64,000 nucleotides of DNA from Escherichia coli (lineage in GTDB: Bacteria; Pseudomonadota; Gammaproteobacteria; Enterobacterales; Enterobacteriaceae), in NCBI RefSeq assembly GCF_003991155.1, contig NZ_CP031293.1; one strand, given 5' to 3'. The notes beneath the pieces are model-generated. The model saw nothing but the letters and a program-made list of their open reading frames with translations, was not told the origin of the DNA and did not search any database. The translations under genes were made by a program, and so were the position numbers. Of the stretch, positions 61,549 through 62,255 are shown one piece after another. The stretch's first letter is position 1; every line of letters begins with the position of its first letter.

Positions 61549-61573
61549 CATATGTTACAATATAACATTACAC
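61549..61573 (+). promoter_or_regulatory. Candidate Zur box in the zinT promoter
   Basis: Near-palindrome tatgttacaatataacatta about 40 bp upstream of zinT, resembling the Zur consensus; zinT is a known Zur target. Confidence 0.5.
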
Positions 61574-61604
61574 ATCATGTACATTAACTCTGGAGGAAAC
61601 TGTT

Positions 61605-62255
61605 TTGGCGATTCGTCTTCATAAACTGGCTGTTGCTTTTGGTGTCTTTATTGTCAGCGCTCCTGCCTTTTCGCATGGTCATCACTCACACGGCAAACCT
61701 TTAACAGAGATCGAACAAAAAGCTGCTAATGGTGTTTTTGATGATGCCAATGTACAAAATCGAACGCTCAGTGACTGGGATGGAGTCTGGCAATCCGTTT
61801 ATCCTTTACTGCAAAGTGGCAAACTTGACCCCGTCTTTCAGAAGAAAGCGGATGCAGATAAAACTAAAACATTTGCTGAAATTAAAGATTATTATCACAA
61901 AGGTTATGCGACAGATATCGAGATGATTGGCATTGAGGACGGCATTGTTGAATTCCATAGAAATAATGAAACAACATCCTGCAAATATGATTACGATGGA
62001 TACAAAATACTCACCTATAAATCAGGCAAGAAAGGCGTTCGTTACTTATTCGAATGTAAAGATCCTGAAAGCAAAGCCCCTAAATATATTCAATTTAGCG
62101 ATCATATAATTGCACCACGAAAATCATCTCATTTTCACATTTTTATGGGTAATGATTCCCAGCAATCTTTATTGAATGAAATGGAAAACTGGCCAACGTA
62201 TTATCCCTATCAGTTGAGTAGCGAAGAAGTAGTCGAGGAGATGATGTCTCATTGA
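61605..62255 (+). CDS. zinT: Periplasmic zinc/cadmium-binding protein ZinT (YodA)
   Basis: 216-aa ORF with His-rich N-terminal stretch HGHHSHG; apparent TTG start with GGAGGA Shine-Dalgarno 7 nt upstream. Confidence 0.95.

Follow-up and report, generated by a model that had tools for sequence, protein, structure and literature searches.

The zinT gene (formerly yodA), which has msrP and msrQ as its upstream neighbours, encodes a zinc-binding protein of the periplasm that partners the ZnuABC importer. Its 5′ end, as found in the 64-kb stretch of Escherichia coli DNA analysed here (the window), raises two questions: whether translation truly starts on the weak initiation codon TTG, and if so, whether this codon is held by selection or is an inheritance without consequence. 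An earlier interpretation made from the DNA letters (the sequence-only reading) had proposed that the frame giving the full ZinT N-terminus begins at TTG 61605, 7 nt behind a GGAGGA Shine-Dalgarno (SD) sequence. Direct reading of positions 61549–61607 (CATATGTTACAATATAACATTACACATCATGTACATTAACTCTGGAGGAAACTGTTTTG) gave the order GGAGGA (61592–61597), a 7-nt spacer (AACTGTT) and TTG (61605–61607), and the open reading frame (ORF) list of the window contains a TTG-initiated ORF of 216 aa at 61605–62255 which encodes ZinT, so that both the positions and the ORF agree with that proposal. The nearest in-frame stop codon 5′ of the TTG is a TAA at 61563, which closes the frame 14 codons upstream, and no ATG, GTG or TTG is present among the 13 codons in between, which include a CTG (61590) overlapping with the SD. 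On the 3′ side the first in-frame canonical start is an ATG at codon 107, leaving TTG 61605 as the sole canonical start (ATG, GTG or TTG) in the open frame upstream of that codon. The sequence-only reading had allowed for an overlooked in-frame ATG or GTG with a better ribosome binding site, and there is none before codon 107; both properties looked for in a UUG start, an SD at 5–10 nt and no better start in frame, were found at zinT, where the spacing of the SD is optimal.

The same start is used in the reference strain. Alignment placed the first codon of the K-12 MG1655 RefSeq zinT gene (b1973, 2041375..2042025), a TTG, on the same base as position 61605 of the window, which disposes of the reservation that K-12 might be annotated with a different start, and PGAP annotated the same 651-nt zinT coding sequence in five further genomes, namely those of strain 2016C-3878 and of four divergent E. 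coli. The zinT TTG is thus already known, being present in the K-12 reference annotation. This strain shares with K-12 the probable −35 hexamer, the Zur box, the SD with its spacer and the start codon, with positions 61550–61579 and 61581–61621 identical base for base, whereas three substitutions are found at the upstream edge of the box (61547–61549) and one in the leader (61580); the first three may lie inside the roughly 30-bp Zur footprint. In a set of six E. coli (including K-12), one cryptic Escherichia and E. albertii, the Zur box, SD, spacer and TTG were kept in all six E. coli and in the cryptic Escherichia, and E. albertii departs from this by a single base change in the box and another in the SD. 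The region 61350–64000 is 100% identical to that of strain 2016C-3878 (NZ_CP029747.1). Over the whole window only three base differences from NZ_CP029747.1 were detected (8134, 22970 and 23922), which after coordinate conversion fall in araF, fliZ and fliA, respectively. In the literature searched, no relevant paper stated the zinT TTG start explicitly or addressed it by experiment, and a search for zinT ribosome-profiling or precursor mass-spectrometry data likewise found none. Taken as a whole, the locus very probably represents a TTG start with a strong ribosome binding site in the Zur-controlled 5′ region of zinT, an arrangement of an already characterised kind.

A scan of species-representative genomes gave 80 loci related to ZinT among the matches listed, for which the open frames upstream of each match were aligned and the codon in the alignment column of the E. 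coli start was read. Among the loci listed, the ZinT lineage that contains E. coli has TTG in this column in 26 of 29 cases and GTG in the other three, with ATG in 0/29. Besides Escherichia, members of the TTG lineage were found in Salmonella, Atlantibacter, Citrobacter freundii, Yokenella, Phytobacter, Superficieibacter, Silvania, Huaxiibacter, Lelliottia, several genomes labelled as Enterobacter and a set of Serratia. Every member has a GAGG, GGAG or AGGA core 4–9 nt (mostly 6–9 nt) before the homologous start, and in a neighbour-joining tree these loci form one clade, with the three GTG cases being separate events. More distant orthologues mostly have ATG, as seen in Buttiauxella, Cedecea, Kosakonia, Pantoea, Erwinia, Yersinia, Proteus, Morganella and Providencia. 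Within the clade, Pseudocitrobacter vendiensis (L032, positions ~1480–1500) has kept the homologous TTG and gained an ATG two codons upstream, 2 nt after a GAGGGA, which makes it the sole possible ATG case in the TTG clade. Four contigs of one assembly, that of Serratia sp. DD3 (L058–L061), gave identical match statistics, upstream frames and N-termini; either a repeat or an artefact of the assembly may account for this.

T occupies the first position of the start codon in 26/29 clade loci (0.90), at a protein identity of 58–73% within the clade. For comparison, 27 four-fold degenerate sites in columns with an invariant residue had a majority base at a mean frequency of 0.55 and a maximum of 0.86. 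Synonymous positions are largely randomised in the clade, and the start-codon T is better conserved than any of these 27 sites. This suggests constraint on the weak start, as far as related sequences and a small control set of 27 sites allow.

Such constraint could mean that the zinT TTG is held by selection, with translational output being capped for a gene of which the promoter swings about 1000-fold, a reading that we rate at somewhat below an even chance. The cap might limit the export load or the amount of apo-ZinT on derepression; alternatively, it might tie the synthesis of ZinT to how faithfully zinc-starved ribosomes initiate. A frozen accident without functional consequence, in which the strong SD suffices and the codon persists by shared ancestry, is a serious competitor, although we would again stop short of calling it probable. 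TTG is an ordinary minority start, initiating ~3% of E. coli genes (bioRxiv 10.1101/063800), and it accounts for two of the 70 complete annotated coding sequences in the window, next to 63 ATG and five GTG. Furthermore, the 29 loci of the clade cannot be counted as independent, the distant ZinT orthologues work with ATG, and the K-12 Zur-regulon genes znuA, znuC, znuB, ykgM and ykgO all start with ATG, leaving zinT as the only non-ATG gene among those checked. These five ATG starts also rule out a regulon-wide non-ATG pattern. Set against the frozen accident are the retention of the T at a frequency exceeding all four-fold sites despite the protein divergence given above, and the nature of the changes that did occur: only three were seen, all T-to-G, with none to ATG, a codon that a single mutation would equally produce and that is usually favoured. 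As to the other weak starts in the window, the only other TTG-initiated coding sequence among the 70 is uvrY (17847, − strand), and the GTG starts belong to dgcQ, fliA, uvrC, tyrP and otsB.

In published reporters, canonical non-AUG starts gave 10–100% of the activity of AUG (bioRxiv 10.1101/063800), and an 8–12-fold reduction has also been quoted (PMC11445065). The closest parallels are the GTG starts of lacI, cra and mlc, described as set-points of expression in the Enterobacteriaceae (PMC11445065), which share with zinT a weak alternative start kept across genera, and as for these genes, an ATG allele of zinT would be expected to raise expression. The parallel has its limits, as lacI, cra and mlc encode cytoplasmic regulators with experimental fitness data, whereas zinT encodes an exported metal-binding protein.

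A different objection is that the real zinT start lies elsewhere, at CTG 61590, ATT 61611 or a downstream ATG, with the TTG being a convention of annotation. Near-cognate codons can initiate at 1–2% of AUG (bioRxiv 10.1101/063800) and the literature search gave no direct zinT initiation data, but each of the candidates fares poorly: CTG 61590 overlaps the SD and is without an SD of its own, ATT 61611, at a distance of 13 nt from the SD, is not kept as a start in the orthologues, and the ATG at codon 107 would leave ZinT without its signal peptide and without the His-rich metal site of the solved structures. With TTG or GTG found in exactly this column, 4–9 nt downstream of an SD, in the 29 clade loci, we consider a start elsewhere very improbable.

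The protein itself also bears on the start at TTG 61605. The ORF product matches the Pfam family PF09223 (ZinT) with an E-value of 2.8e-85 and 285 bits against a cut-off of 27 (residues 37–216, profile positions 2–181 of 181), and it is near-identical to the PDB entries 1s7d and 1oee, with three residues (Y6H, L12F and V36I) differing from the K-12 ZinT structure 1s7d. Residues 1–23 show the n-, h- and c-region pattern of a Sec signal, in which R4 and K7 are the basic residues, the core is hydrophobic and positions −3/−1 hold small residues (A-F-S), and the whole stretch 1–23 is absent from the chains of PDB entries 1oee, 1oej, 1oek and 5aq6, which consist of residues 24–216 with HGHHSHG as N-terminus. 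As residue 24 is the first in these chains of the mature protein, the start must precede the signal peptide, and since there is no other canonical start before codon 107, the TTG is the only start that supplies the 23-residue signal peptide. The 216-aa precursor would be exported and the signal peptide cut after Ala-Phe-Ser, giving mature ZinT starting with HGHHSHG. N-terminal proteomics of mature ZinT, which had been put forward as a check, is unable to decide the start, as cleavage of the signal peptide takes away residues 1–23.

The positions of the features at the zinT locus are collected in Table 1.

Table 1. Features of the zinT locus, in coordinates of the 64-kb window
Feature	Position	Strand	Description and basis
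Probable −35 hexamer TTGCAT, zinT promoter	61538..61543	+	By eye; invariant in 7/8 Escherichia sequences
Zur operator (Zur box)	61549..61572	.	23-bp pseudo-palindrome 61549–61571, centre 61560; 20-nt motif 61553–61572
Probable −10 hexamer TATAAC, inside Zur box	61561..61566	+	By eye; 5/6 match to TATAAT
Putative mRNA leader, ~32 nt	61573..61604	+	Placed from the −10 hexamer assigned by eye
Shine-Dalgarno GGAGGA	61592..61597	+	Read from sequence, 7 nt before TTG
zinT initiation codon TTG	61605..61607	+	Only canonical start in open frame; annotation agrees; 26 TTG + 3 GTG in 29 clade loci
Signal peptide coding region, 23 codons	61605..61673	+	PDB chains comprise residues 24–216; residue pattern read from sequence
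Mature ZinT, residues 24–216, HGHHSHG N-terminus, TGA stop 62253–62255	61674..62255	+	Pfam and PDB
Hairpin and T-run, probably zinT terminator	62344..62375	+	11-bp stem with one bulge, −15.3 kcal/mol, z −5.2, followed by TTTTTT

The near-palindrome which the sequence-only reading had placed about 40 bp upstream of the start was present and the distance was fair, as the box ends ~34 nt upstream of the TTG and is centred 45 nt upstream of it, but the description of the element required correction: it is of odd length, with one mismatch. The symmetric core ATGTTACAATATAACAT (61552–61568, centre 61560) consists of two 7-nt arms around a central base (ATGTTAC-A-ATATAACAT), a symmetry that fits a dimeric binder of the Fur family, and it occurs once in the window, with 0.04 occurrences expected from shuffled sequences. 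Reading the element as an even-length palindrome gave only 8/20 and was rejected. The published E. coli Zur motif TRWNAYRWTATAWYRTNWCA, the one that according to a passage of PMC6103462 was used by Gilston et al. to define E. coli Zur sites, is matched 20/20 at 61553–61572 on both strands, and this is the only site in the window with ≤1 mismatch to the motif (0.02 expected from shuffles). The motif was derived in part from K-12 PzinT, and the 20/20 match therefore mainly represents identity to the known operator.

That operator has been well characterised in K-12, where two Zur dimers bind PzinT cooperatively with a Kd-app of 0.053e-18 M2 by EMSA and Zur represses PzinT 984-fold in vivo; of the four known E. 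coli Zur operators, PzinT belongs to the strongest pair (PMC4219657). Like the operators of znuA/znuCB, ykgM-ykgO/L31p and pliG (Gilston et al. 2014, PMC4219657), it belongs to the motif class TRWNAYRWTATAWYRTNWCA, shows a pseudo-palindromic RNNNY pattern and mediates repression through Zn-Zur bound at the promoter. PzinT and PL31p stand out by high affinity and roughly 1000-fold repression, whereas znuC and pliG are repressed 7–8-fold (PMC4219657). Accumulation of the ZinT protein in O157:H7 was also found to be Zur- and zinc-dependent (PMC3053223). The assignment of the palindrome as a Zur site was thus borne out by the motif and by the identity with K-12 at 61550–61579, for which binding and repression are published. 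Judged by this identity, the palindrome is the zinT Zur operator, with binding and repression taken from the K-12 publications on the identical core, and as such it is an operator already published for E. coli K-12.

The box was also followed among the zinT relatives. A survey of 75 zinT sequences, 73 of them related loci, showed that most loci have a Zur box with 0–2 mismatches, at 16–49 nt on the 5′ side of the zinT start. The main exceptions were Proteus, Morganella and some Providencia, in which zinT directly follows other genes. In the locus analysed in detail, that of Proteus alimentorum (L066, 1046–2121), zinT starts 4 nt after ykgM-/ykgO-like genes for L31B and L36B and is without a Zur box of its own, with a box-like sequence located at the start of the ykgM-like ORF. 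Upstream sequence similar to that of L066 was also seen in L049, L051, L057, L062, L064, L069, L073–L075 and L079, which represent other Proteus, Morganella and some Providencia, and this similarity suggests the same arrangement in those loci. Gene order and the position of the box-like sequence point to a single Zur-controlled rpmE2-rpmJ2-zinT operon in loci of the Proteus type.

That the palindrome might instead represent chance symmetry or the site of another regulator, such as Fur, is extremely improbable: the region is AT-rich, Fur-family boxes resemble each other and other stress inputs to yodA have reportedly been described in older work, but the Zur-specific motif is matched in full against 0.02 matches expected per window, the sequence is that of the K-12 operator with its very high Zur affinity and 984-fold repression, a homologous box is kept upstream of zinT from Escherichia to Yersinia, and the box is absent where zinT sits behind ykgM-ykgO-like genes, with the box-like sequence fronting the operon in Proteus L066.

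With the palindrome taken as the Zur operator, the order of events at the zinT 5′ end can be proposed. The positions of the −35 and −10 hexamers and of the transcription start site (TSS) were assigned by eye, with a 17-nt spacer between TTGCAT and TATAAC and a TSS that would lie near 61573. A consensus promoter scan did not list the TTGCAT/TATAAC pair and returned instead a promoter-like site, TTGTCA-18-AATAAT (61441–61470, 10/12), which is the better match to the consensus and is located 135 nt upstream of the zinT start; the number of promoter-like matches in the region was not above that in shuffled sequences. The Zur operator would overlap the putative σ70 promoter formed by TTGCAT and TATAAC, and the location of the probable −10 hexamer inside the Zur box implies that repression may be by promoter occlusion. 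When zinc is sufficient, Zn-loaded Zur would occupy the pseudo-palindrome as a dimer of dimers and block RNA polymerase; upon zinc starvation Zur would leave the operator and transcription would rise by about three orders of magnitude. On the resulting mRNA, with its predicted short and unstructured leader, GGAGGA would set the 30S subunit on the UUG 7 nt downstream, which would be read as fMet by the initiator tRNA, usually less efficiently than AUG. The sequence-only reading had allowed that a non-ATG start may influence translation efficiency; that such starts reduce translation is generally known, and the TTG may accordingly lower ZinT output.

Structure of the leader RNA was considered as an additional regulator and rejected, as the fold of 61573–61650 had a minimum free energy of −12.7 kcal/mol (z −0.05), no more than expected by chance. 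An Rfam scan of 61300–63100 gave no family match, and returned below threshold a naRNA4/REP-like element at 61370–61411 and a chance rliB. The former corresponds to a GC-rich palindromic REP-like element in the msrQ-zinT spacer, which scored 29.3 bits with naRNA4 against a gathering score of 59.5.

The downstream side of zinT differs from that in K-12, in that this strain lacks yodB, the gene located 3′ of zinT in K-12, and has its own 222-bp segment (62256–62477, not present in K-12), which contains the probable terminator; a pattern scan did not return this hairpin. K-12 homology returns at 62478–62938 and ends 14 nt into the 3′ end of the tRNA-Ser gene serU (TGGCGGAGAGAGGG), and ARAGORN found no intact tRNA in 60000–64000. 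The end of serU is followed by an island with a tyrosine integrase gene from 63103, which runs off the window; the matching genome of 2016C-3878 has this integrase followed by genes for a VOC protein and a PilV shufflon adhesin.

With the start present in the reference annotation and the operator being one of the four characterised Zur sites of E. coli, the locus is of low importance for discovery, and the analysis shows that the zinT annotation is sound in this strain. What is added here is that at least a dozen genera have retained the TTG and that none has clearly switched to ATG. This conservation makes a TTG-to-ATG swap in zinT a cheap test of whether the start codon tunes the metal-starvation response.
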